The notes below the pieces were generated by a model that made no database searches, had not been told where the DNA came from, and saw only the letters and a list, made by a program, of their open reading frames with translations. DNA of 10,075 bases from a virus (lineage: Duplodnaviria; Heunggongvirae; Uroviricota; Caudoviricetes): IMG/VR virus record IMGVR_UViG_2654587588_000010, positions 1 to 10,075 of that record; one strand, given 5' to 3'. Shown here piece after piece: positions 1 to 10,075 of the stretch; within the stretch, counting starts at the first letter, position 1, and each line of letters starts with the position of its first letter. The position numbers were made by a program, and so were the translations under genes.

Positions 1-2085
<2,085 letters not shown>

Positions 2086-2098
2086 CCATCAACGAAAA

Positions 2099-2118
2099 AG
2101 CCCACATCTGTGGGCTTT
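2099..2118 (+). terminator. Possible weak intrinsic terminator after the autotransporter gene
   Basis: Seen: 8-bp stem AGCCCACA / TGTGGGCT with a 3-nt loop, 14 nt after the stop codon, followed by only TTT. The short T-run makes this weak. Confidence 0.3.
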
Positions 2119-2401
2119 CATGTCACCAGGAGCCGCGGCTCCTTTGCGTATCCTTTTATGTCTCTTCACCGTCTGGTCGGCGTCCTGCTGAGACTTCTAA
2201 CTTCCTGTTTTTATTGGTGTTGTCCTTATACCGTCCAATCATGATTGGGCTGGCGGAGTTTGAATAAATATTGTATTGCTTTGATTTTTTAATGATTTTG
2301 TTTAATTCAGCTTTTGTGTGTATACCTAATCGTATACCAATGGCTGTAAGTTAATGTGAAATGAAAGCGCATTTTTACTTGGATTGATGCTATATCGTAC
2401 A

Positions 2402-2704
2402 GGAAAAAATTTTTTTTCGGAAGAACTGTTCACACTGTTCACCATTTGGTTTTCTCCTTTTATTTCAGCATGATAGGTGGTGAATAATGGGTGAAGGGTG
2501 AACATTCGATTCTTCACCTCCGGCATTCTGCCGGTGTGACTCATACCGGTGATTAATCCCCCGTACTGAAATCACACAGGGAGAAAAAAGTTTTTTTTTG
2601 ATTTGATTGTTCACACTGTTCACCTTTCATTTTTCTCTTTTAATTTCAGTATGATAACGGGTGAATACACGGTGAAGGGTGAACAGTGGATTGTTCACCT
2701 TCGG
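2402..2704. repeat. crr-like cis replication region: two direct repeats of about 122 bp at a 180-bp period, each carrying TGTTCAC-type iterons
   Basis: Seen: 2402-2522 and 2582-2704 align nearly base for base, each with TGTTCACACTGTTCACC, GGTGAA, GGTGAAGGGTGAAC and TTCACC motifs. Established (from memory): P4 crr is two 120-bp direct repeats with type I iterons bound by alpha, next to the 3' end of the alpha gene. Confidence 0.6.
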
Positions 2705-2717
2705 GGAATTCAGGGAT

Positions 2718-2742
2718 AAAAAAAGACCGGCAGATGCCGGTC
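2718..2742 (-). terminator. Rho-independent terminator of the leftward alpha operon
   Basis: Seen: minus-strand hairpin GACCGGCATCTGCCGGTC (plus 2725-2742) followed immediately by a 7-nt U-run (plus 2718-2724), 17 nt after the alpha stop codon at 2759-2761. Confidence 0.5.
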
Positions 2743-2758
2743 AGATGAGTCATGAGGG

Positions 2759-5092
2759 TCAGGTTGTTGCAGGGTCGTCACATTTTGGCAGCCAGTCGCC
2801 GTAGCTTTCCTCTTTCAGCGTCAGGTTGGTCTGTATCCCCTGTTTGGTATGGCGCTTCTCGTAATTCAGTCCGTATTCCTTCAGCATCACCGGCAGCCCC
2901 AGCCCGAACATTTTCAGACTGAGTACATTCCGGTAGCCGTTTGCCTCCATGTAGGCCAGATAGGCGTGATAGAGGTATTTACGGTAATTACGCGGGATGA
3001 TACTGGCGTTCCCCATATACATGCCGCTGGTCTGCGGCAGGGTTTCCAGATAGCCGATAAAATCAAACGTCGGGTCGGCATCCCGTTTGATGTTCAGCGC
3101 CTCGTCTGAGTTCTGCTGGGACTGAAGCAGTGACCGGGCGAGCATCGGGTCGCTGAACTTCTGCATCAGGTGACGCACGATGACCGCCAGCTCGCGGGTG
3201 ATTTTGTCCTTAAGCTGCGGGTCGCGCTCCTGCGGGGCTATCTGTTCCGGGAAGTGAATAATCACCCGCCGGCGTGACACGCCGCCGCTGCGGTCGGTGA
3301 AGCGCATCGGGTTATTGTTCACGGCCAGAATCACCGCCGGGATGTGCGTGGAGTACGCATCCCGGTATTTCGGGTCAACGGACACCGCATCGCCGCCGGT
3401 GATGGCCTTGAGTCCGGCACCGTCGCCGCTCCATTTTTCCTGGTCCGGCAGGCGTATCAGTGAGAAGCCAGTTAACGCGGCACGTTCACGCGGGGATTCC
3501 AGCGTCTCGATGGTGGCCGACGTGGCGTTATCCTCCCCGGCCAGCAGGGTGGCGATTTCGGCCATGATACTTTTGCCGCTGCCGCCGGGACCGGTCACCT
3601 CCAGAAAGAGCTGCCAGTCGTAGCGGTTTGCCAGCACCATAAACAGTGCGGCCAGAATCACGTCGCGTTTTTCCGCACGACCACCGGCGGCACGGTCAAG
3701 CCAGCGCCAGAACGCGGGAGCGTGGGTTTCCAGCGTTTCCCCTTCCACCGGCGGGGTGAAATCCACATCGCACAGGGTACGCATCCAGTGTGACGGACTG
3801 TGCGGGTGGAACGTGCCGTTCTGCGTGTCGGGCACGCCGTTACGAAAGCCAATCAGGCGGCGGGAGGGGGCTTCCTGCTGCGGAATAATCAGCTTCAGGG
3901 TGTCCACCACGGAGGCCACCTTCCCGGAGGAGAACGGCGCACGCAGACGCTGAAACAGCCCGGCCACATCCCGGGCAAAGTCCTGTGGCGGCAGCACCTT
4001 CCAGACACCATTTTCATAACGGGACAGAAGCTGGCCGTTGGCATCGACCGCGAGCGCCTCGCCGTAATGCTCATAGATACGCATGGCCTTTTCGCTGGTA
4101 CTCATGGCGGAAAACTCCGCTTCACTCATGGTGTCGAACGGGCTTTCAGCCGGTGGCCGGATGGCATCGTAAATGGCCTTACGGGTGGCCTCCCCGCCGT
4201 ACTGCGTGAAGGCATCATTCCAGTCACCGAAGACCGGTGGCAGGGCAACAACACCTTCACACGCATCTGCGGCTGCGGCGGCTTTTTTCTGGCCGTCACC
4301 GCTGAGGTCACGGTCAGCAGCAAGGACAATCTGACAGGCCGGATGCTTCTGCCGGGCAAGGCTGGCCAGAGAAAGGAGGTTCACGGAAGAAAGCGCCACC
4401 ATCACCGTTTCACCGGTCAGGTGATGTACGGTAAGTGCGGTCGCGTATCCCTCCGCTATCCACAGACGTTTTCCGGCCTGATTCTGTCCTTCAAGGGTGT
4501 GACAGGTGCCCCTGACCTGTCCGCCTTTCAGGGTGCGCTTACGGCCGTCAGCACTGATTAACTGAAGGTTAACCAGTTCGCCGCTGTCGTCATACAGTGG
4601 CACCACAAGGTCACCGGCGCGCCAGCTCACGCCACCGGCTCTGTGTGTGCCGGTCAGCATCCGGCATTCCCGGCCGGGAAAGCCCTTGCGGGTCAGGTAG
4701 GCGTTACCGGTTCCGGGACGGGTTTTCGCTATCAGGGTTTGTGCCAGTGCGGCGGCGTTCTTCCGGGCAGCGTCTGTTTCAGCACCGGCGGCAGCCGTCA
4801 CTGCCGGGTCAGCCGGGGGCAGGCTGCCGGTCACGGCAGCCACCTTTGCGGCCGCGTCGGACGGGGAGACACCAAACACCTTTTCAACCAGTTTCAGGCC
4901 GTCACCGGCACCACACTGATTGCAGTACCAGGTGCCGCGCCCCTCCCTGTCATCAAAACGGAAGCGGTCACTCCCGCCACAGACCGGACAGGGCTGATGA
5001 CGGTTCTTCAGCACCTGAATCCCCAGCGCCGGGAGAATACGCGGCCAGTGGCCGAGCGCATGGCTGACGGTGGCGGTTACGTTCATTTTCAT
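2759..5092 (-). CDS. alpha: P4 alpha-type primase-helicase replication protein (777 aa)
   Basis: Seen: N-terminal zinc-binding motif CPVCGGSDRF...WYCNQCG; Walker A GPGGSGKS in the central NTPase domain; RBS AAGGAGA 8 nt before ATG at 5092. Established: P4 alpha is a 777-aa primase, helicase and origin-binding protein. Lies next to the crr repeats as in P4. Confidence 0.9.
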   Translation of the reverse strand: MKMNVTATVSHALGHWPRILPALGIQVLKNRHQPCPVCGGSDRFRFDDREGRGTWYCNQCGAGDGLKLVEKVFGVSPSDAAAKVAAVTGSLPPADPAVTAAAGAETDAARKNAAALAQTLIAKTRPGTGNAYLTRKGFPGRECRMLTGTHRAGGVSWRAGDLVVPLYDDSGELVNLQLISADGRKRTLKGGQVRGTCHTLEGQNQAGKRLWIAEGYATALTVHHLTGETVMVALSSVNLLSLASLARQKHPACQIVLAADRDLSGDGQKKAAAAADACEGVVALPPVFGDWNDAFTQYGGEATRKAIYDAIRPPAESPFDTMSEAEFSAMSTSEKAMRIYEHYGEALAVDANGQLLSRYENGVWKVLPPQDFARDVAGLFQRLRAPFSSGKVASVVDTLKLIIPQQEAPSRRLIGFRNGVPDTQNGTFHPHSPSHWMRTLCDVDFTPPVEGETLETHAPAFWRWLDRAAGGRAEKRDVILAALFMVLANRYDWQLFLEVTGPGGSGKSIMAEIATLLAGEDNATSATIETLESPRERAALTGFSLIRLPDQEKWSGDGAGLKAITGGDAVSVDPKYRDAYSTHIPAVILAVNNNPMRFTDRSGGVSRRRVIIHFPEQIAPQERDPQLKDKITRELAVIVRHLMQKFSDPMLARSLLQSQQNSDEALNIKRDADPTFDFIGYLETLPQTSGMYMGNASIIPRNYRKYLYHAYLAYMEANGYRNVLSLKMFGLGLPVMLKEYGLNYEKRHTKQGIQTNLTLKEESYGDWLPKCDDPATT

Positions 5093-5106
5093 GGTGTTGT
5101 TCTCCT

Positions 5107-5427
5107 TCAGTGCAGTACCGGCGCTTTTATGTGACGGGCACAGAGTTCATCCATCACAACCAGCCCGAGAAAGGACAGCGACGGCGCGGCCTTCAGGGGG
5201 CCGGATTCCATTAAATCTTCCAGCAGGGCACAGGCTATCTGACGCCCTTTTTCCTCACCGTGCTGGCGCAGATAAAAGCCCTCCAGCTCAGCGGCGATGG
5301 CCGCCTCCAGTGATTCAAGGGTGAGATGCGGGTAGCGGTGCTGACGTTCGCACACGGTCAGCCAGGCACAGGCGACAGCGCGACGGTAAAGGGCAGCGCG
5401 TAAGACGGGCGGTAAGGGTGTTTTCAT
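5107..5427 (-). CDS. Small protein of the P4 left operon (106 aa), function unknown
   Basis: Seen: RBS GGGAGG 7 nt before ATG at 5427; stop TGA at 5107-5109 sits 14 nt before the alpha start, inside the alpha RBS region. Immediately upstream of alpha and co-oriented. Confidence 0.55.
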
Positions 5428-5562
5428 TTGTTTTCCTCCCTGTGACAGATGACTGCATTCCGTGCCGGTTGCATTAACTGATAAGGCATATCTGCGTCTC
5501 CTGAAGACGTGCGTATCCCTGCGCGAATACGCACATTTAATTTTTCGGGTGTCGTTTTTTAA

Positions 5563-6018
5563 TTACAGATAATTGCGGTAACTGTTATCCGGGGTGATTT
5601 CCGGGTCAGGCTCCGTGCGGGGAATTTCCCGCCATTCCCGCGCCACCGGTGCCGCCCGGCTGACCGGAACAGGGTCCTGCGGGTAAATATCCAGATATTT
5701 CTCCCGCCATTTCTGTAATTCCGGGTCTCCGGCCATTTCTTTCAGTACCGCATGCCGGTTTACGGGGCTGCGTCTGAACAGGTCAGGACGGTCACAGGTA
5801 AATTTCCGCAGAAAACGCCCCAGCGGGATATCTGTGGTGCGCCCGTCAGCGAGGATACGCACAAGGATACTGAATTTACGGCGGTACGGGTTCCAGACAA
5901 TGTCCGGGCAGCGGTACGGCATTTCCCACGGAATACCGTCTTCCAGAATGCCAACCACGGCCACATCGGGAAAACCGGCAGAACGGTAAATCTCACCGGG
6001 CTGGGGAAAATCAAACAT
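5563..6018 (-). CDS. P4 orf151-like protein (151 aa), function unknown
   Basis: Seen: RBS GGGGAGA before ATG at 6018; the start overlaps the stop of the upstream ORF (ATGTTTGA), indicating translational coupling. Established (from memory): P4 has a 151-codon ORF between epsilon and alpha. Confidence 0.6.
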   Translation of the reverse strand: MFDFPQPGEIYRSAGFPDVAVVGILEDGIPWEMPYRCPDIVWNPYRRKFSILVRILADGRTTDIPLGRFLRKFTCDRPDLFRRSPVNRHAVLKEMAGDPELQKWREKYLDIYPQDPVPVSRAAPVAREWREIPRTEPDPEITPDNSYRNYL

Positions 6019-6298
6019 GCGTCTTGTCTCCCCGGTCTTTCTGCTGGGCGAGAAAATCGCGGCACAGGCCTTTGGCTTTCAGCTCATTCAGCACAAAATC
6101 AATATCTTCATTCAGGTAGCTGAAAATATGCGGAATGTAGAGCTGATGCAGGCCGGAGAGTTCACGGTGAATCAAATCACCCCCAACAAACTGGGATACG
6201 GCGCTGGCGCGGTTGAGCTTATGGTAAGCCTCAATGCTGAGGTGTTCACGGGCGTCATGACGCGCTGAGACGGTCTGAGGGGCTTTTTTATTACGCAC
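6011..6298 (-). CDS. epsilon: Probable P4 epsilon-type derepression protein (95 aa)
   Basis: Assigned from position (directly upstream of orf151 in the left operon) and size only; no motif recognised. GTG start at 6298 overlaps the stop of the eta-like ORF (GTGCGTAA). Confidence 0.5.
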
Positions 6299-6488
6299 GG
6301 GACACCTCCATCACCGGCAGACGGGCAGCAAGGGAGAGCACATAGTCACGGACAAGGGAACGGCGGGCACTGCGTTCATCACCGGCGACGGTGCGAAGCA
6401 TGCAGATACGGGGGTGACGGTCTGCGCGACGGACAGCCGCAAACACAAAGACAAATTCAGGGTGTGAGGGGGTAAGGGTTGTAGCCAT
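6291..6488 (-). CDS. Small ORF (65 aa) at the position of P4 eta
   Basis: Seen: internal ATG at 6488 of the long 6291-6890 ORF, preceded by AGGAGG (plus 6497-6502) that overlaps the seqC-like element; stop overlaps the epsilon start. Upstream part of the long ORF rejected. Confidence 0.4.
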
Positions 6489-6499
6489 GATGGCAGCCT

Positions 6500-6540
6500 C
6501 CTTGAAGTAACAGTTACAGCTACCACTGGAGTTCCTACGC
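6500..6540 (-). promoter_or_regulatory. seqC-like antisense target: two 8-nt blocks complementary to seqB
   Basis: Seen: plus-strand CCTTGAAG (6500-6507) and GTTCCTAC (6531-6538) are reverse complements of CTTCAAGG and GTAGGAA in 6565-6586. Established: in P4, CI RNA pairs with seqA and seqC on nascent leftward transcripts to terminate transcription and block translation. Confidence 0.5.
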
Positions 6541-6545
6541 TCATG

Positions 6546-6625
6546 GGTGGTAGCCCGGACGGGGGTAGGAATACCGGCCTTCAAGGAAACCGGCCAGCCC
6601 GAAGGCTGCCCCGCCCGGACCACCA
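6546..6625 (-). ncRNA. cI: CI-type immunity RNA candidate carrying seqB; ends approximate
   Basis: Seen: GC-rich segment with long-range pairing (GGTGGT 6546-6551 with ACCACC 6619-6624; GGGCGGGG with CCCCGUCC allowing one G-U) enclosing a CAGCC-UUCG-GGCUG tetraloop hairpin and the seqB blocks at 6565-6586. Boundaries not determinable from sequence alone. Confidence 0.45.
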
Positions 6626-6721
6626 TTATCTGACAGAGGCTACGGTTTAAAAACCACAGCCAGAAAAACAGGTGTGCCGAAGCAACGACGTAAAAAAAGA
6701 CGCATGGCGCGTCATATGTCG

Positions 6722-6745
6722 CCTTGAAGTAACTCGGGTTCCTAC
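6722..6745 (-). promoter_or_regulatory. seqA-like antisense target in the early leader
   Basis: Seen: CCTTGAAG (6722-6729) and GTTCCTAC (6738-6745), the same two blocks as seqC, complementary to seqB. Confidence 0.5.
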
Positions 6746-6776
6746 GCCCGGCTGCCGATTTTGCGGCAGCGGAAAA

Positions 6777-6806
6777 ACTATATCCGCAAATGCCGGAAAA
6801 AGGCAA
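6777..6806 (-). promoter_or_regulatory. Candidate early leftward promoter (PLE-like)
   Basis: Seen on minus strand: -35 TTGCCT (plus 6801-6806), 18-nt spacer, -10 TATAGT (plus 6777-6782); predicted start near 6770, about 25 nt upstream of seqA and about 395 bp downstream of the predicted PLL start. Established (from memory): P4 PLE lies about 400 bp downstream of PLL. Confidence 0.4.
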
Positions 6807-6841
6807 GCCAGAAAAAGGGAGTTTTTGCAGAACAGGCATCA

Positions 6842-7108
6842 TCATGCGTCGTACCCCCGTTTGCGTCCGGCAATGCGCCCGGCCATCCATGCGGTGACTT
6901 CAGAGTGCAGCCAGGCCACATTTTTACCGCCAAGACTCACCTGCGGCGGAAATTCCCCCTTACGGATGAGTTCGTAGATGGTCGAGCGTGACAGGCCGCA
7001 CAGGTGCATCACTTCCGGCAGACGTAAAAAACGCTCCTGCGTGATGTCCGGCAGCGGCATCAGTGGCGTCACAGGGGCGGGAGACGGGGAAGAAAAAACA
7101 GCTTGCAT
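6842..7108 (-). CDS. vis: Vis / AlpA-family DNA-binding regulator (88 aa)
   Basis: Seen: helix-turn-helix segment [30 protein letters not shown] typical of the AlpA family; RBS GAGG before ATG at 7108; sits between the late-promoter region and the immunity module as P4 vis (orf88) does. Confidence 0.85.
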
Positions 7109-7210
7109 CGGGCTACCTCGTTAATGTCCATACAGCACCGGATAAGTCCGTCCGGCTTCGGGTAGCGCTTTATTTTGTGAATATTTTCAGCAGACGCAAC
7201 AGGGGGGATT

Positions 7211-7228
7211 TGTTCCGGCAGTCTTACA
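7211..7228 (-). promoter_or_regulatory. Ogr/Delta-type activator site (TGT-N12-ACA) of a leftward late promoter (PLL-like)
   Basis: Seen: TGTTCCGGCAGTCTTACA. Established: P2/P4 late promoters carry TGT-N12-ACA centred near -55; that places the start near 7165, 57 nt upstream of vis. Confidence 0.4.
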
Positions 7229-7386
7229 ATGGCTGTGTATTTTTTGTACATCAGCGCCAGATAGCTTTAAAACGCTCTGGAAGGAGCTGGAAAAAATTAT
7301 AGTGAAATACAAATTGTTTTTTCTTATTTATTTCAGTGAATTAATAAAAATAAAAAGTAATAAACAGCACAAAAAGCCCATCAACG

Positions 7387-7491
7387 GGTGAACAGTGGTG
7401 AACAGACGGTGAACAGTCATTACTGCGATTGTTCACCCTTTAAATTACTGTATTACTTATCTTTTTTCTTATGGTGAACAGAGGTGAACAG
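7387..7491. repeat. Origin-of-replication iteron cluster (six GGTGAACAG / TGTTCACC copies) in an AT-rich intergenic region
   Basis: Seen: GGTGAACAG at 7387-7395, 7397-7405, 7408-7416, 7473-7481 and 7483-7491, plus inverted TGTTCACC at 7430-7437, flanked by AT-rich DNA (7290-7380, 7440-7510). Same motif as in the crr repeats. Established (from memory): P4 ori consists of alpha-bound type I iterons. Confidence 0.6.
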
Positions 7492-7569
7492 TAAAATATA
7501 AAAAAACAAACAGTAAGCCGGTTTTTCCTGCGACCTTTTCCTGGCTTGCCGGTCTGAGGATGAGTCTCC

Positions 7570-7636
7570 TGTGTCAGGGCTGGCACATCTGCAATGCGTC
7601 GTGTTGTTGTCCGGTGTACGTCACAATTTTCTTAAC
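7570..7636 (+). promoter_or_regulatory. Psid-like late promoter with Ogr/Delta-type activator site
   Basis: Seen: TGT-N12-ACA at 7570-7587 (TGTGTCAGGGCTGGCACA); weak -10-like CACAAT near 7622-7627; RBS GAGGAG at 7647-7652; sid ATG at 7660. Confidence 0.45.
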
Positions 7637-7659
7637 CTGAAGTGACGAGGAGCCGGAAA

Positions 7660-8394
7660 ATGTCTGACAACACCATCCCTGAATATCTGCAACCCGCGCT
7701 GGCACAACTGGAAAAGGCCAGAGCCGCCCACCTTGAGAACGCCCGCCTGATGGATGAGACCGTCACGGCCATTGAACGGGCAGAGCAGGAAAAAAATGCG
7801 CTGGCGCAGGCCGACGGAAACGACGCTGACGACTGGCGCACGGCCTTTCGTGCAGCCGGTGGTGTCCTGAGCGACGAGCTGAAACAGCGCCACATTGAGC
7901 GCGTGGCACGCCGGGAGCTGGTACAGGAATATGACAATCTGGCCGTGGTGCTGAATTTCGAACGTGAACGCCTGAAAGGGGCGTGTGACAGCACGGCCAC
8001 CGCCTACCGGAAGGCACATCATCACCTGCTGAGTCTGTATGCAGAGCATGAGCTGGAACACGCCCTGAATGAAACCTGTGAGGCGCTTGTCCGGGCAATG
8101 CATCTGAGCATTCTGGTACAGGAAAATCCGCTCGCCAACACCACCGGGCATCAGGGCTACGTCGCACCCGATAAAGCTGTCATGCAGCAGGTGAAATCAT
8201 CGCTGGAACAGAAAATAAAACAGATGCAAATCAGCCTCACCGGCGAGCCGGTTCTCCGGCTGACCGGACTGTCAGCGGCAACACTCCCGCACATGGATTA
8301 TGAGGTGGCAGGCACACCGGCACAGCGCAAGGTGTGGCAGGACAAAATAGACCAGCAGGGAGCAGTGCTTAAGGCCAGAGGACTGCTGTCATGA
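7660..8394 (+). CDS. sid: Sid capsid size-determination (external scaffold) protein, 244 aa
   Basis: Seen: ATG at 7660 with RBS GAGGAG 7 nt upstream is preferred over the GTG at 7642 in the ORF track; stop overlaps the delta start (ATGA). Established: P4 late operon is sid-delta-psu and Sid is 244 aa (from memory). Confidence 0.85.
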   Translation: MSDNTIPEYLQPALAQLEKARAAHLENARLMDETVTAIERAEQEKNALAQADGNDADDWRTAFRAAGGVLSDELKQRHIERVARRELVQEYDNLAVVLNFERERLKGACDSTATAYRKAHHHLLSLYAEHELEHALNETCEALVRAMHLSILVQENPLANTTGHQGYVAPDKAVMQQVKSSLEQKIKQMQISLTGEPVLRLTGLSAATLPHMDYEVAGTPAQRKVWQDKIDQQGAVLKARGLLS

Positions 8395-8891
8395 TTTACT
8401 GCCCGTCGTGTGGACATGTTGCTCACACCCGCCGCGCACATTTCATGGACGATGGCACCAAGATAATGATTGCACAGTGCCGGAATATTTATTGCTCTGC
8501 GACATTTGAAGCGAGTGAAAGCTTTTTCTCTGACAGTAAAGATTCAGGAATGGAATACATTTCAGGCAAACAGAGATACCGCGATTCACTGACGTCAGCC
8601 TCCGGTAGCATGAAACGCCCGAAAAGAATGCTTGTTACCGGATATTGTTGTCGGAGATGTAAAGGCCTTGCACTGTCAAGAACATCGCGGCGTCTGTCTC
8701 AGGAAGTCACCGAGCGTTTTTATGTGTGCACGGATCCGGGCTGTGGTCTGGTGTTTAAAACGCTTCAGACCATCAACCGCTTCATTGTCCGCCCGGTCAC
8801 GCCGGACGAACTGGCAGAAAGCCTGCATGAAAAACAGGAACTGCCGCCAGTACGCTTAAAAACACAATCATATTCGCTGCGTCTGGAATGA
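8391..8891 (+). CDS. delta: Delta late-gene transcriptional activator: two tandem Ogr-like zinc-finger modules (166 aa)
   Basis: Seen: N-terminal module MIYCPSCGHVAHTRRAHF...CRNIYCSATF and a second C-x2-C...C-x4-C module CCRRCKGLA...CTDPGCGLVF. Established: P4 Delta is 166 aa and resembles a covalent dimer of P2 Ogr. Confidence 0.9.
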   Translation: MIYCPSCGHVAHTRRAHFMDDGTKIMIAQCRNIYCSATFEASESFFSDSKDSGMEYISGKQRYRDSLTSASGSMKRPKRMLVTGYCCRRCKGLALSRTSRRLSQEVTERFYVCTDPGCGLVFKTLQTINRFIVRPVTPDELAESLHEKQELPPVRLKTQSYSLRLE

Positions 8892-8964
8892 GGGCTGCCG
8901 GTTAACACCGGCCGTCGCCGCACACCGTATTTTTATTCTTCAGCATGATGAGAAAGATATAACG

Positions 8965-9207
8965 ATGGAAAGCACAGCCTTACAGCAGGCCTTTGACACC
9001 TGTCAGAATAACAAAGCAGCATGGCTGCAACGCAAAAATGAGCTGGCTGCGGCCGAACAGGAATATCTGCGGCTTCTGTCAGGAGAAGGCAGAAACGTCA
9101 GTCGCCTGGACGAATTACGCAATATTATCGAAGTCAGAAAATGGCAGGTGAATCAGGCTGAACCGCCCCGGGAATCCTGGAGACTAAACTCCCTGAGAAA
9201 GAGGTAA
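8965..9207 (+). pseudogene. psu: psu (polarity suppression / capsid decoration) truncated by IS insertion
   Basis: Seen: ORF starts MESTALQQAFDTCQNNKAAW... and switches at about codon 65 (near 9159) into IS-derived sequence, ending after 15 more codons at TAA 9205-9207. Established (from memory): P4 Psu is about 190 aa with this N-terminus. Confidence 0.7.
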
Positions 9208-9212
9208 ACAGG

Positions 9213-9539
9213 ATGACTAAAAATACACGTTTTTCCCCCGAGGTCCGTCAACGGGCAGTTCGTATGGTTCTGGAAAGTCAGGATGAATATGACTCACAGT
9301 GGGCGGCAATTTGTTCCATTGCCCCAAAGATTGGCTGTACGCCGGAGACTCTGCGTGTCTGGGTTCGCCAGCATGAGCGGGATACCGGGAGCGGTGATGG
9401 CGGACTCACCACCGCTGAACGTCAGCGTCTGAAAGAGCTGGAACGTGAAAATCGTGAACTGCGCCGCAGTAACGATATCCTTCGCCAGGCTTCCGCTTAT
9501 TTTGCGAAGGCGGAGTTCGACCGCCTCTGGAAAAAATAA
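9213..9539 (+). CDS. IS3-family transposase OrfA (108 aa, helix-turn-helix plus leucine zipper)
   Basis: Seen: [22 protein letters not shown]...[28 protein letters not shown], matching IS629-group OrfA as recalled; stop TAA at 9537-9539 overlaps the orfB ATG. Confidence 0.9.
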
Positions 9540-10075
9540 TGCCACTGCTGGATAAGCTGCGTGAGCAGTACGGGGTCGGACCGCTATGCAGCGAACTGCA
9601 TATTGCCCCGTCAACGTATTACCACTGTCAGCAACAGCGACATCATCCTGATAAACGCAGTGCCCGTGCGCAGCGCGATGACTGGCTGAAGAAAGAGATA
9701 CAGCGCGTATACGATGAAAATCATCAGGTATACGGTGTGCGTAAAGTCTGGCGCCAGTTGTTACGCGAAGGTATCAGGGTGGCCAGATGTACAGTGGCGC
9801 GCCTCATGGCGGTTATGGGACTTGCCGGTGTTCTCCGGGGTAAAAAGGTCCGTACGACCATCAGCCGGAAAGCCGTTTCCGCATGCGACCGCGTAAACCG
9901 TCAGTTCGTGGCAGAACGTCCAGACCAGTTGTGGGTGGCTGATTTTACCTGGGTAAGCACATGGCAGGGCTTCGTTTATGTGGCGTTCATCATTGATGTG
10001 TTCGCCGGATACATCGTGGGATGGCAGGTCTCATCATCCATGGAAACAACATTCGTGCTGGATGCACTGGAGCAG
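9539..10075 (+). CDS. IS3-family transposase OrfB (DDE integrase domain), 3'-partial at the window edge
   Basis: Seen: frame open from ATG 9539 to the window end (179 codons): [29 protein letters not shown]...QLWVADFTWVSTWQGFVYVAFIIDVFAGYIVGW. Missing from the ORF track because no stop codon is reached. Confidence 0.85.
   Translation, partial: MPLLDKLREQYGVGPLCSELHIAPSTYYHCQQQRHHPDKRSARAQRDDWLKKEIQRVYDENHQVYGVRKVWRQLLREGIRVARCTVARLMAVMGLAGVLRGKKVRTTISRKAVSACDRVNRQFVAERPDQLWVADFTWVSTWQGFVYVAFIIDVFAGYIVGWQVSSSMETTFVLDALEQ

Follow-up and report, generated by a model that had tools for sequence, protein, structure and literature searches.

A P4-type satellite prophage core integrated in the 3′ end of ssrA, with an insertion sequence inside psu

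A 10,075-bp Escherichia coli draft contig, analyzed here in its entirety as the window, carries a P4-like set of genes and has an insertion sequence (IS) at either contig end. The locus raises the question of what this element is: P4 itself, an immobile remnant, an assembly product, or another member of the P4 lineage. The contig ends inside the right-hand IS, and the window includes neither the 3′ portion of psu nor cos, the cargo hotspot, or int. We conclude with high confidence that a satellite prophage of the P4 lineage, of which the window holds the left two-thirds, has integrated into the 3′ end of E. coli ssrA next to ypjA, and that its psu gene is interrupted by an IS629/IS1203-type element.

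We observed 97.3% nucleotide identity between window positions 2404-9158 and positions 4291-11081 of P4 (NC_001609, also X51522), some 6.8 kb. In megablast and blastn searches, window 2404-6627 matched P4 4291-8504 (97.4%, E = 0) and window 6686-9158 matched P4 8608-11081 (96.8%, E = 0). Both elements carry crr, alpha, cnr/orf106, orf151, epsilon, kil/eta, the cI RNA, vis, ori, sid, delta, and psu in this order and on the same strands. The eight complete open reading frames (ORFs) have the lengths of their P4 counterparts, contain neither frameshifts nor internal stops, and encode proteins 98-100% identical to those of P4 (protein identities here and below are counted over aligned positions, the stop included). 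Profiles in Pfam, NCBIfam, and PHROGs assigned alpha, epsilon, vis, delta, psu, sid, and kil to their families. The initial annotation had proposed a P4-type core of canonical order and sizes and had named nucleotide alignment against the P4 reference as a test beforehand; the high identity, unchanged order, and equal ORF lengths bear this proposal out, and the near-identity to P4 likewise agrees with its view that the system is known, not new. Judged by homology, the feature is a P4-type satellite prophage core made up of replication, immunity, and helper-hijacking modules, a known kind of element.

In the replication module, crr (the cis replication region; 2404-2704, plus strand) contains 120-bp direct repeats at 2404-2523 and 2585-2704, and in each repeat are five type I iterons that bind alpha. 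The repeats align with P4 4291-4410 and 4471-4590, and every TGTTCACC/GGTGAACA iteron is kept. The 777-aa alpha protein, a primase-helicase and origin-binding replication protein (2759-5092, minus strand), is identical to P4 alpha at 769/778 positions and matched Pfam Zn_Ribbon_Prim, Toprim_3, D5_N, DUF5906, and Pox_D5 as well as phrog_2249 (5.9e-242). Its neighbor, orf106 (5107-5427, minus strand; 106 aa; Pfam DUF5375), is identical to P4 ORF106 at 107/107 positions and is the gene named cnr, the copy-number regulator. The ori region, with the divergent late promoters PLL and Psid, was placed at 7109-7659 by alignment to P4 9022-9593 and from the P4 feature table. Six type I iterons at 7387-7490 are conserved relative to P4. 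The PLL and Psid regions are conserved too, and TGT-N12-ACA sequences, the Delta-site consensus, mark candidate Delta-type sites at 7212-7229 and 7608-7625. A segment at 7248-7296 is unrelated to the three type II ori repeats of P4 and stands in their place; the same variant (CATCAGCGCC, at 23486-23506) replaces them in a relative from the same locus, L002. Between this segment and the att region, the only shared motif was the 10-mer CAATGGCTGT (2338 and 7227), at about chance level.

Also on the minus strand are orf151 (5563-6018; 151 aa; 148/152 identical to P4 ORF151; phrog_10748, 2e-100), epsilon for helper prophage derepression (6011-6298; 95 aa; 94/96; Pfam PF25738, Derepression), and the Icd-like kil with nested eta (6291-6488; 65 aa; 65/66; NCBIfam phage_ICD_like, 1.6e-21), which is the first translated gene past the immunity region. 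On the same strand, vis (orf88, AlpA-type; 6842-7108) encodes an 88-aa excisionase and late-promoter regulator identical to that of P4 at 88/89 positions, with Pfam matches to Phage_AlpA and HTH_17. Rightward, on the plus strand, lie sid (7660-8394; 244 aa; 242/245 identical to P4 Sid), for the external scaffold of small capsids, and delta (8391-8891; 166 aa; 164/167), for the Ogr/Delta zinc-finger protein that activates late promoters of both helper and satellite. The genes singled out beforehand for comparison with P4-family profiles all matched, alpha and delta through Pfam (Ogr_Delta for delta) and sid through PHROGs (phrog_6165, 1.5e-115); sid had no match among Pfam or NCBIfam models. 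The tight gene junctions seen at first reading were also confirmed: orf151 and epsilon overlap by 8 nt, as do epsilon and kil, sid and delta overlap by 4 nt (ATGA), and 14 nt separate alpha from orf106.

The gene list had included psu, of which the first 64 of 190 codons are present (8965-9158, plus strand; 64/64 identical to P4 Psu residues 1-64; Pfam Psu) and the rest is cut off. Homology to P4 stops at 9158, equivalent to P4 11081, and an IS629/IS1203-type element of the IS3 family occupies 9159-10075 (plus strand), with a left inverted repeat, orfA, a frameshift pseudoknot (Rfam ALIL, 9494-9610, 119 bits), and the start of orfB, reaching the contig end. It shares 96% identity with IS1203 and IS629 copies. 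The called 80-aa ORF at 8965-9207 is consequently a fusion of psu and IS sequence. By this junction, Psu, the capsid-decoration and anti-Rho protein, is lost from the window copy through the IS.

To the left, positions 1-97 (plus strand) are the right end of a multi-copy IS3-family element outside the satellite, annotated as an IS3 family transposase in matching genomes; we found 100% matches to it in 2,119 E. coli genomes, at up to 16 copies per genome. We considered whether this could be the other end of the right-hand IS and rejected the idea, as the sequence differs from the right end of IS1203 and belongs to a different IS3-family element, one outside the IS629 type. The NCCP15648 genome shares 100/100 bases with the left IS end, at a different junction. 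The chromosomal flank at 98-2088 (plus strand) is a ypjA/ehaD autotransporter pseudogene with ORF fragments at 270-1730 and 1759-2085 and Pfam matches to AIDA and Autotransporter; relatives annotate ypjA at this locus. Compared with L003, ypjA has a 1,320-bp internal deletion in the window, with its junction near 1608/1609, whereas the gene is intact in a complete relative.

The left junction of the integrated element is an att core at 2249-2264 (GCTGGCGGAGTTTGAA) that repeats the 3′ end of ssrA in degenerate form. The empty-site genome PSJ-14 matches the window to 2248 and then runs into ssrA (TGGAGCTGGCGGGAGTTGAA); in L002, an intact ssrA directly adjoins the int end of the element. The initial annotation started the core at 2402; the element itself begins ∼155 bp further left, at the att core. 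Read from these junctions, the window element sits within the 3′ end of ssrA, the tmRNA gene, and not in P4's attachment site. In K-12-type genomes, sequence shared with the window extends to 2264/2265 and so includes the att core; the CP4-57 cryptic prophage of E. coli K-12 occupies the same ssrA-ypjA site. CP4-57 is a larger decayed island that is not known to carry the P4 replication and hijack core.

Between the att core and crr lies a tandem 11-bp motif (GTATACCTAAT/CGTATACCAAT; 2322-2343, plus strand). By analogy with the tandem arm repeats of P4, we reasoned that these are probably integrase arm-type sites. L002 has near-identical 22-mers at 18538 and 30528 (95% identical), one of them adjoining the integrase at the other end of the element. 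The 22-bp repeat GTATACCTAA(T/A)CGTATACCAAT was also considered as the att core and rejected, because the PSJ-14 empty site puts the junction at 2249-2264; a chimeric empty-site query built on this repeat as the core gave no match.

The same arrangement of ypjA and a P4-like element was found in 115 complete E. coli genomes. NZ_AP027679 (PSS-08-2) and NZ_CP123059 (M25631H), for example, are 98-99% identical to window 98-9158 and have the same chromosomal junction. This collinearity of the ypjA-to-P4 junction weighs against an assembly chimera, in which unrelated pieces would have been joined via repeats in the draft assembly, as might be suspected of a short draft contig with repeats at both ends. 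An identical psu-IS fusion protein occurs on 4 contigs, the window contig was recorded in 2 samples, and the IS sequences are only at the contig ends, where assemblers stop. We therefore regard a chimera as highly improbable.

The relatives also indicate what may lie to the right of the window. Complete relatives at the ypjA-ssrA locus carry psu, cos (the P2-shared site GGCGAGGCGGGGAAAGCAC; at 27264-27282 in L002), a 567-aa ORF, a 398-aa integrase, and ssrA, and the two relatives examined in full both have this series. The integrase is a tyrosine integrase with Arm-DNA-bind_3, Phage_int_M, and Phage_integrase domains and is 36% identical to P4 Int; gop, beta, cII, and the P4 int are absent from the ypjA-ssrA relatives examined. 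The initial annotation had expected the right-hand side to carry the int, cII, beta, and gop of P4, which is probably wrong given the ssrA site and the relatives' 567-aa ORF and 36%-identical integrase. Mobilization by a P2-like helper, which the initial annotation had held possible, would hinge on the presence of cos and int beyond the right-hand IS.

Could the element nevertheless be P4 itself at its own attachment site, followed by gop, beta, cII, and int? The very high identity of the core would fit such a reading. However, homology ends exactly at the crr boundary (2404, equivalent to P4 4291), the att-proximal 100 bp is unrelated to that of P4, and the junction is with ssrA and ypjA. Where P4 has gop, beta, and cII, the same-locus relatives have other cargo and a different integrase. 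The immunity determinants, too, differ from those of P4 at both recognition boxes (see below). The chance that the window is P4 itself is, in our view, negligible, and we continue with the reading of a P4-lineage element at ssrA.

A rival that deserves more weight is an immobile remnant: a deletion or rearrangement marked by the right-hand IS would have taken away cos, the cargo, int, and the 3′ portion of psu, leaving behind a stranded set of replication, immunity, and hijacking genes capable of neither excision nor packaging. Both contig ends lie in IS elements, and the neighboring ypjA has been degraded by an IS, the 1,320-bp deletion, and a frame break. The psu::IS junction was absent from 5,426 complete E. 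coli genomes, so that no complete genome in the collection has this junction followed by the remainder of the element. On the other hand, none of the eight complete genes carries a frameshift, and their products remain 98-100% identical to those of P4, so any decay must be recent, and in M25631H an IS1203 copy sits in sid, not psu, with the entire right arm still present. A contig end at an IS is itself no sign of deletion, because draft contigs break at any multi-copy IS. We consider such a remnant possible, although we lean against it, and prefer an IS interruption of psu in an otherwise P4-like prophage.

Differences from P4 cluster in the immunity region. The cI immunity RNA, which contains seqB (6543-6630, minus strand), matched the Rfam C4 antisense RNA family at 86.1 bits (gathering score 45; E = 2e-16), and its predicted fold has the architecture of P4 cI. 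The cI locus in the original gene list is thus present, as an RNA gene with no protein product. Downstream, seqC (6495-6542, minus strand), the cI RNA target overlapping the kil ribosome-binding site, contains CTTCAAGGA and GTAGGAA, which are perfectly complementary to the cI loop and tail, respectively. Upstream, the PLE promoter, the leader with seqA, and the leader terminator occupy 6693-6806 (minus strand), with the -35 at 6801-6806, the -10 at 6777-6782, and seqA at 6718-6751. The leader matched Rfam isrK (73 bits) and c4-a1b1 (49.6 bits), and within it seqA complements both the cI loop and the cI tail. The PLE promoter sequence is the same as in P4, as are PLL, Psid, and the type I iterons, whereas the cI loop reads CUUGAAG in the window and CUGUGAA in P4, and the tail UUCCUAC in the window and UUCUCAC in P4; seqA and seqC are altered to match. 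Upstream of cI, the spacer in P4 exceeds that of the window by 45 nt.

Since the cI loop, seqA, and seqC have changed together relative to P4, their sequences predict that the window element is heteroimmune to P4, that is, of a different immunity type. Calculated duplex energies are consistent with this prediction: the cognate cI-seqA and cI-seqC duplexes of the window are predicted at -32.8 and -36.3 kcal/mol, versus -19.4 to -29.0 kcal/mol for window-P4 cross duplexes, which are 7-18 kcal/mol weaker. Across seven elements with five distinct cI loops, we found the loop and tail exactly complemented in both seqA and seqC in 7/7. The window immunity allele occurs at ≥99% identity in 132 records from complete E. 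coli genomes; a search of the phage collection for phiR73 or another sequenced satellite with this allele gave P4 only, at 84.8%.

A long frame of 184 codons in phase with kil (6291-6845, minus strand) starts at an ATGA overlapping the vis stop and crosses PLE, seqA, the terminator, cI, and seqC; its counterpart is the 199-codon frame of P4. This kil-phase frame is open in 7/7 divergent elements, in which the other frames have 1-9 stops, and 0.6-3% of shuffled sequences are open. In P4, late transcripts are translated across the immunity region, which would let them escape termination, and the principle has been described for P4 and phiR73, so that only a systematic picture could be new. In that picture, satellite immunity would fall into discrete specificity classes, with the cI loop and tail, seqA, and seqC co-varying, and one vis-coupled open frame would serve the escape of PLL transcripts; we think it unlikely to hold as a new generalization.

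The ORFs free of frameshifts and the cis sites present in the window indicate that, as first annotated, the replication, immunity, and late-activation modules are intact. With P4 biology and the near-identity as a guide, we infer the activities of the window element as follows. In a lysogen, PLE would be transcribed constitutively and the leader processed to cI RNA, whose loop and tail would anneal to seqA and seqC of nascent RNA, causing premature termination and keeping kil/eta, epsilon, orf151, cnr, and alpha off. With a P2-type helper present or infecting, Delta and the helper Ogr would activate PLL and Psid. Transcripts from PLL would begin upstream of vis, and their translation through the immunity region in the open frame would let them escape termination. 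Epsilon would then derepress the helper prophage, alpha would replicate the element from ori with crr, and vis would promote excision; Sid would turn helper capsid assembly to small capsids, and Delta would switch on helper late genes.

How does the element fit the family at large? In the definition of Moura de Sousa & Rocha, P4-like satellites have seven core components in a conserved order, with one or two absences tolerated (PMC8628076). Five of the seven are intact in the window (alpha, epsilon, alpA/vis, sid, and delta), with psu a stub and int off the contig, and the family order psu-delta-sid-alpA-epsilon-alpha is kept. Integrases are often exchanged in these satellites, and their variable cargo sits beside cos in the psu-int interval (PMC8628076, PMC9122126), a pattern that matches the window as compared with P4 and the relatives; this interval is the defense hotspot of Rousset et al. 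(PMC9122126). As for P4 in the strict sense, the window has its type I iterons, and its predicted immunity specificity and its attachment site are not those of P4, nor is the integrase of the same-locus relatives.

P4-like satellites have been reported from ∼44% of the E. coli isolates surveyed (PMC9122126). For such a common family, a copy 97% identical to the type phage is a minor discovery, and its value is mainly for annotation. A long "Icd-like" or "ash" CDS called across the immunity region overlies an RNA gene, and the removal of Psu by IS insertion in the window's strain is a further point for annotators. Should the systematic picture of immunity be true and uncatalogued, its specificity classes would define satellite-against-satellite exclusion groups, and the open frame, through its translation, would give late PLL transcripts a conserved way around the satellite's own RNA immunity. 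Overall, the window indicates that a P4-identical core can ride on a different integration module, at ssrA, and with a different predicted immunity type.

We aligned the window, which makes up the entire draft contig JHQY01000103.1 (10,075 bp; assembly GCA_001265185.1), with the satellite phage P4 reference (NC_001609). Positions 2404-9158 matched P4 4291-11081 in two aligned blocks of 97.4% and 96.8% identity (E = 0). Gene order and strands were common to the P4 feature table and the open reading frames (ORFs) of the window: crr (2404-2704); then, on the minus strand, alpha (2759-5092), orf106/cnr (5107-5427), orf151 (5563-6018), epsilon (6011-6298), kil/eta (6291-6488), cI (6543-6630) and vis (6842-7108); ori with the late promoters (7109-7659); and, on the plus strand, sid (7660-8394), delta (8391-8891) and psu (from 8965). 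ORF lengths were the same as in P4, without frameshifts or internal stops, and the proteins were 98-100% identical. Profile searches were concordant for alpha, epsilon, vis, delta, psu, kil and sid. The initial annotation had proposed a canonical P4-type order and sizes for a known system; the alignment, feature table and equal ORF lengths confirmed this. Identity was high, the order was that of P4, and alpha, sid and delta all matched family profiles. The family is very common and the element an ordinary representative, rightly recognized from the outset.

Public labels for sid conflict: it is called "glycoprotein 3", "hypothetical protein" or "capsid size-determining scaffold Sid" in RefSeq records, including L002 and L003 (two complete E. 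coli relatives), and "polarity suppression Psu-like" in PHROGs and the P4 RefSeq record. Separately, alpha carried nine substitutions compared with P4, five of them within 27 residues (100-126: T100A, V103G, D104A, M121I and T126P); this cluster points to a small patch of recombination in the primase domain.

Coding regions were 98-99% identical to P4, and divergence clustered in three non-coding places. Around ori, the six type I iterons, the surroundings of PLL and all of the Psid region as far as the start of sid were unchanged, as was every type I iteron in both 120-bp crr repeats. The -35 and -10 hexamers of PLE were also the same as those of P4. We found two TGT-N12-ACA motifs, the Ogr/Delta recognition pattern, upstream of PLL (7212-7229) and of Psid (7608-7625). 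In contrast, the three 10-bp type II repeats of the P4 ori (P4 9176-9205) were replaced by unrelated sequence at 7248-7296, a variant also present in L002; the adjoining Delta-type site and type I iterons were untouched. We also observed that the 10-mer CAATGGCTGT occurs twice: near att, directly behind the arm-type repeat (2338-2347), and bordering the Delta-type site of PLL (7227-7236). The two copies may bind a common protein (Vis?) or may recur by chance (expectation roughly 0.07).

A further place of divergence was the immunity region (6500-6800). The initial annotation had listed cI in the gene order; cI is not a protein gene but an RNA, which Rfam assigns to C4 at 86 bits (gathering score, 45). 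The Rfam family isrK (73 bits) matched the leader with its terminator, and c4-a1b1 (49.6 bits) the target boxes. The cI loop reads CUUGAAG in the window and CUGUGAA in P4, the tail UUCCUAC and UUCUCAC, and matching changes were present in both targets, seqA upstream and seqC downstream. The window's own duplexes were predicted at -32.8 and -36.3 kcal/mol and those of P4 at -33.2 and -40.8 kcal/mol, whereas window-P4 cross duplexes were predicted to be weaker (-19.4 to -29.0 kcal/mol). We then aligned the window and P4 with five further E. coli P4-like elements. Five different loops occurred among these seven elements, and the loop 8-mer and tail 7-mer were exactly complemented in seqA and seqC in 7/7. 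The window's immunity allele recurred at ≥99% identity in complete E. coli genomes (132 records). Together, the covariation and this recurrence show an immunity module that is intact and under selection. The immunity type (6486-6806, minus strand) is common to strain B2C, and both its boxes are unlike those of P4; heteroimmunity of the element to P4 is predicted from this, though not proven.

We also followed a frame that starts where ATGA overlaps the vis stop (6845) and runs in frame into kil (6291-6845, minus strand). In the window, in P4 (199 codons, P4 8168-8767) and in 5/5 relatives, no stop codon interrupted it through PLE, seqA, the terminator, the variable spacer, cI and seqC. The net length difference of 45 nt from P4 preserves the frame, which stayed open despite indels among the seven elements. 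The remaining two frames held 1-9 stops, and shuffled sequences were open in only 0.6-3%. RefSeq calls this frame a 549-591 nt CDS, "Icd-like" or "ash family", lying over the RNA gene. On our interpretation, PLL transcripts are translated throughout the immunity region and would thereby be shielded from termination, a mechanism reportedly proposed for P4 already.

The third divergent place lay left of crr, where all sequence was unrelated to the P4 attP region. Positions 1-97 hold the end of an IS3-family element that occurs in multiple copies. The IS629-type element on the right is another one, so two different ISs bound the contig. A degraded ypjA/ehaD autotransporter pseudogene follows (98-2088), damaged by the IS cut at 97/98, the loss of an internal 1,320 bp and with it the passenger-beta-barrel link (junction near 1608/1609), and a frame break at 1730. 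In E. coli PSJ-14, where the site is empty, ssrA lies 160 nt after ypjA, and the window agrees with that chromosome through 2248. At 2249-2264 the 3' end of ssrA then reappears in degenerate form (GCTGGCGGAGTTTGAA; native, TGGAGCTGGCGGGAGTTGAA). In a complete relative, the opposite end of the element adjoins an intact ssrA. The element is therefore integrated in the ssrA 3' end and not where P4 itself attaches, the leuX tRNA gene; a true P4 lysogen at that site is effectively excluded. A tandem 11-bp motif (2322-2343), which recurs beside the integrase gene in relatives, probably represents arm-type sites.

At the right boundary, P4 homology ended at 9158, where an IS629/IS1203-type left inverted repeat begins (9159, TGAACCGCCCCGGGAATCC...) and the IS extends to the contig end. 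Hence psu, listed in the initial annotation without a truncation, has its start but is cut after codon 64 of 190, and Psu is lost in this copy. Psu is dispensable for P4 growth but stabilizes the capsid. The IS holds an ALIL frameshift pseudoknot (9494-9610, 119 bits) and, at only ~96% identity to the IS629/IS1203 copies known from Stx phages and E. coli genomes, is a divergent isoform. The psu-IS junction was not found in any complete E. coli genome searched; an 80-aa psu-IS fusion protein was present on four contigs, and an assembly chimera is effectively excluded. We favor, with some reservation, insertion of the IS alone, the right arm being on another contig; IS-associated loss instead is the less probable reading, though a serious one.

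The ypjA and P4-like arrangement occurred in 115 complete E. coli genomes, two of which we inspected in full. In both, psu is followed by the P2/P4 cos sequence, a 567-aa ORF, a 398-aa tyrosine integrase (36% identity to P4 Int) and ssrA; gop, beta and cII of P4 were absent. The 567-aa ORF, the single gene in the psu-int hotspot (L002 27580-29283; L003 26240-27943), had no Pfam match and a weak PADLOC match to Cas13-ApeA (E = 7e-6); it is a candidate for an uncharacterized defense gene. In strain PSS-08-2 (L003), a P2-like prophage with integrase, CI, replication endonuclease and portal genes (29321-40381) lies at ssrA immediately beside the satellite; helper and satellite are in tandem at one att site, and the ssrA annotation is split. 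P4-like elements have a conserved core, often-exchanged integrases and variable cargo adjoining cos (PMC8628076; PMC9122126), and the window and its relatives follow this modular pattern.

Given the near-identity to P4, we infer the following from P4 biology. Transcription from PLE would yield cI RNA, whose pairing with seqA and seqC would terminate transcripts before kil, epsilon and alpha and keep the prophage quiet. Ogr of a P2-type helper, with the satellite's own Delta, would activate PLL and Psid, a picture that the open frame fits. Epsilon would derepress the helper, alpha would replicate the element from ori with crr, Vis would assist excision, Sid would force small capsids, and Delta would switch on helper late genes. 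As initially annotated, the replication, immunity and late-activation modules are intact at the sequence level, as are helper derepression and capsid-size functions; excision and packaging would depend on int and cos, both outside the contig. What is added to this known system lies in four corrections: a truncated psu, ssrA integration with a non-P4 module, a non-P4 immunity type, and cI as an RNA.
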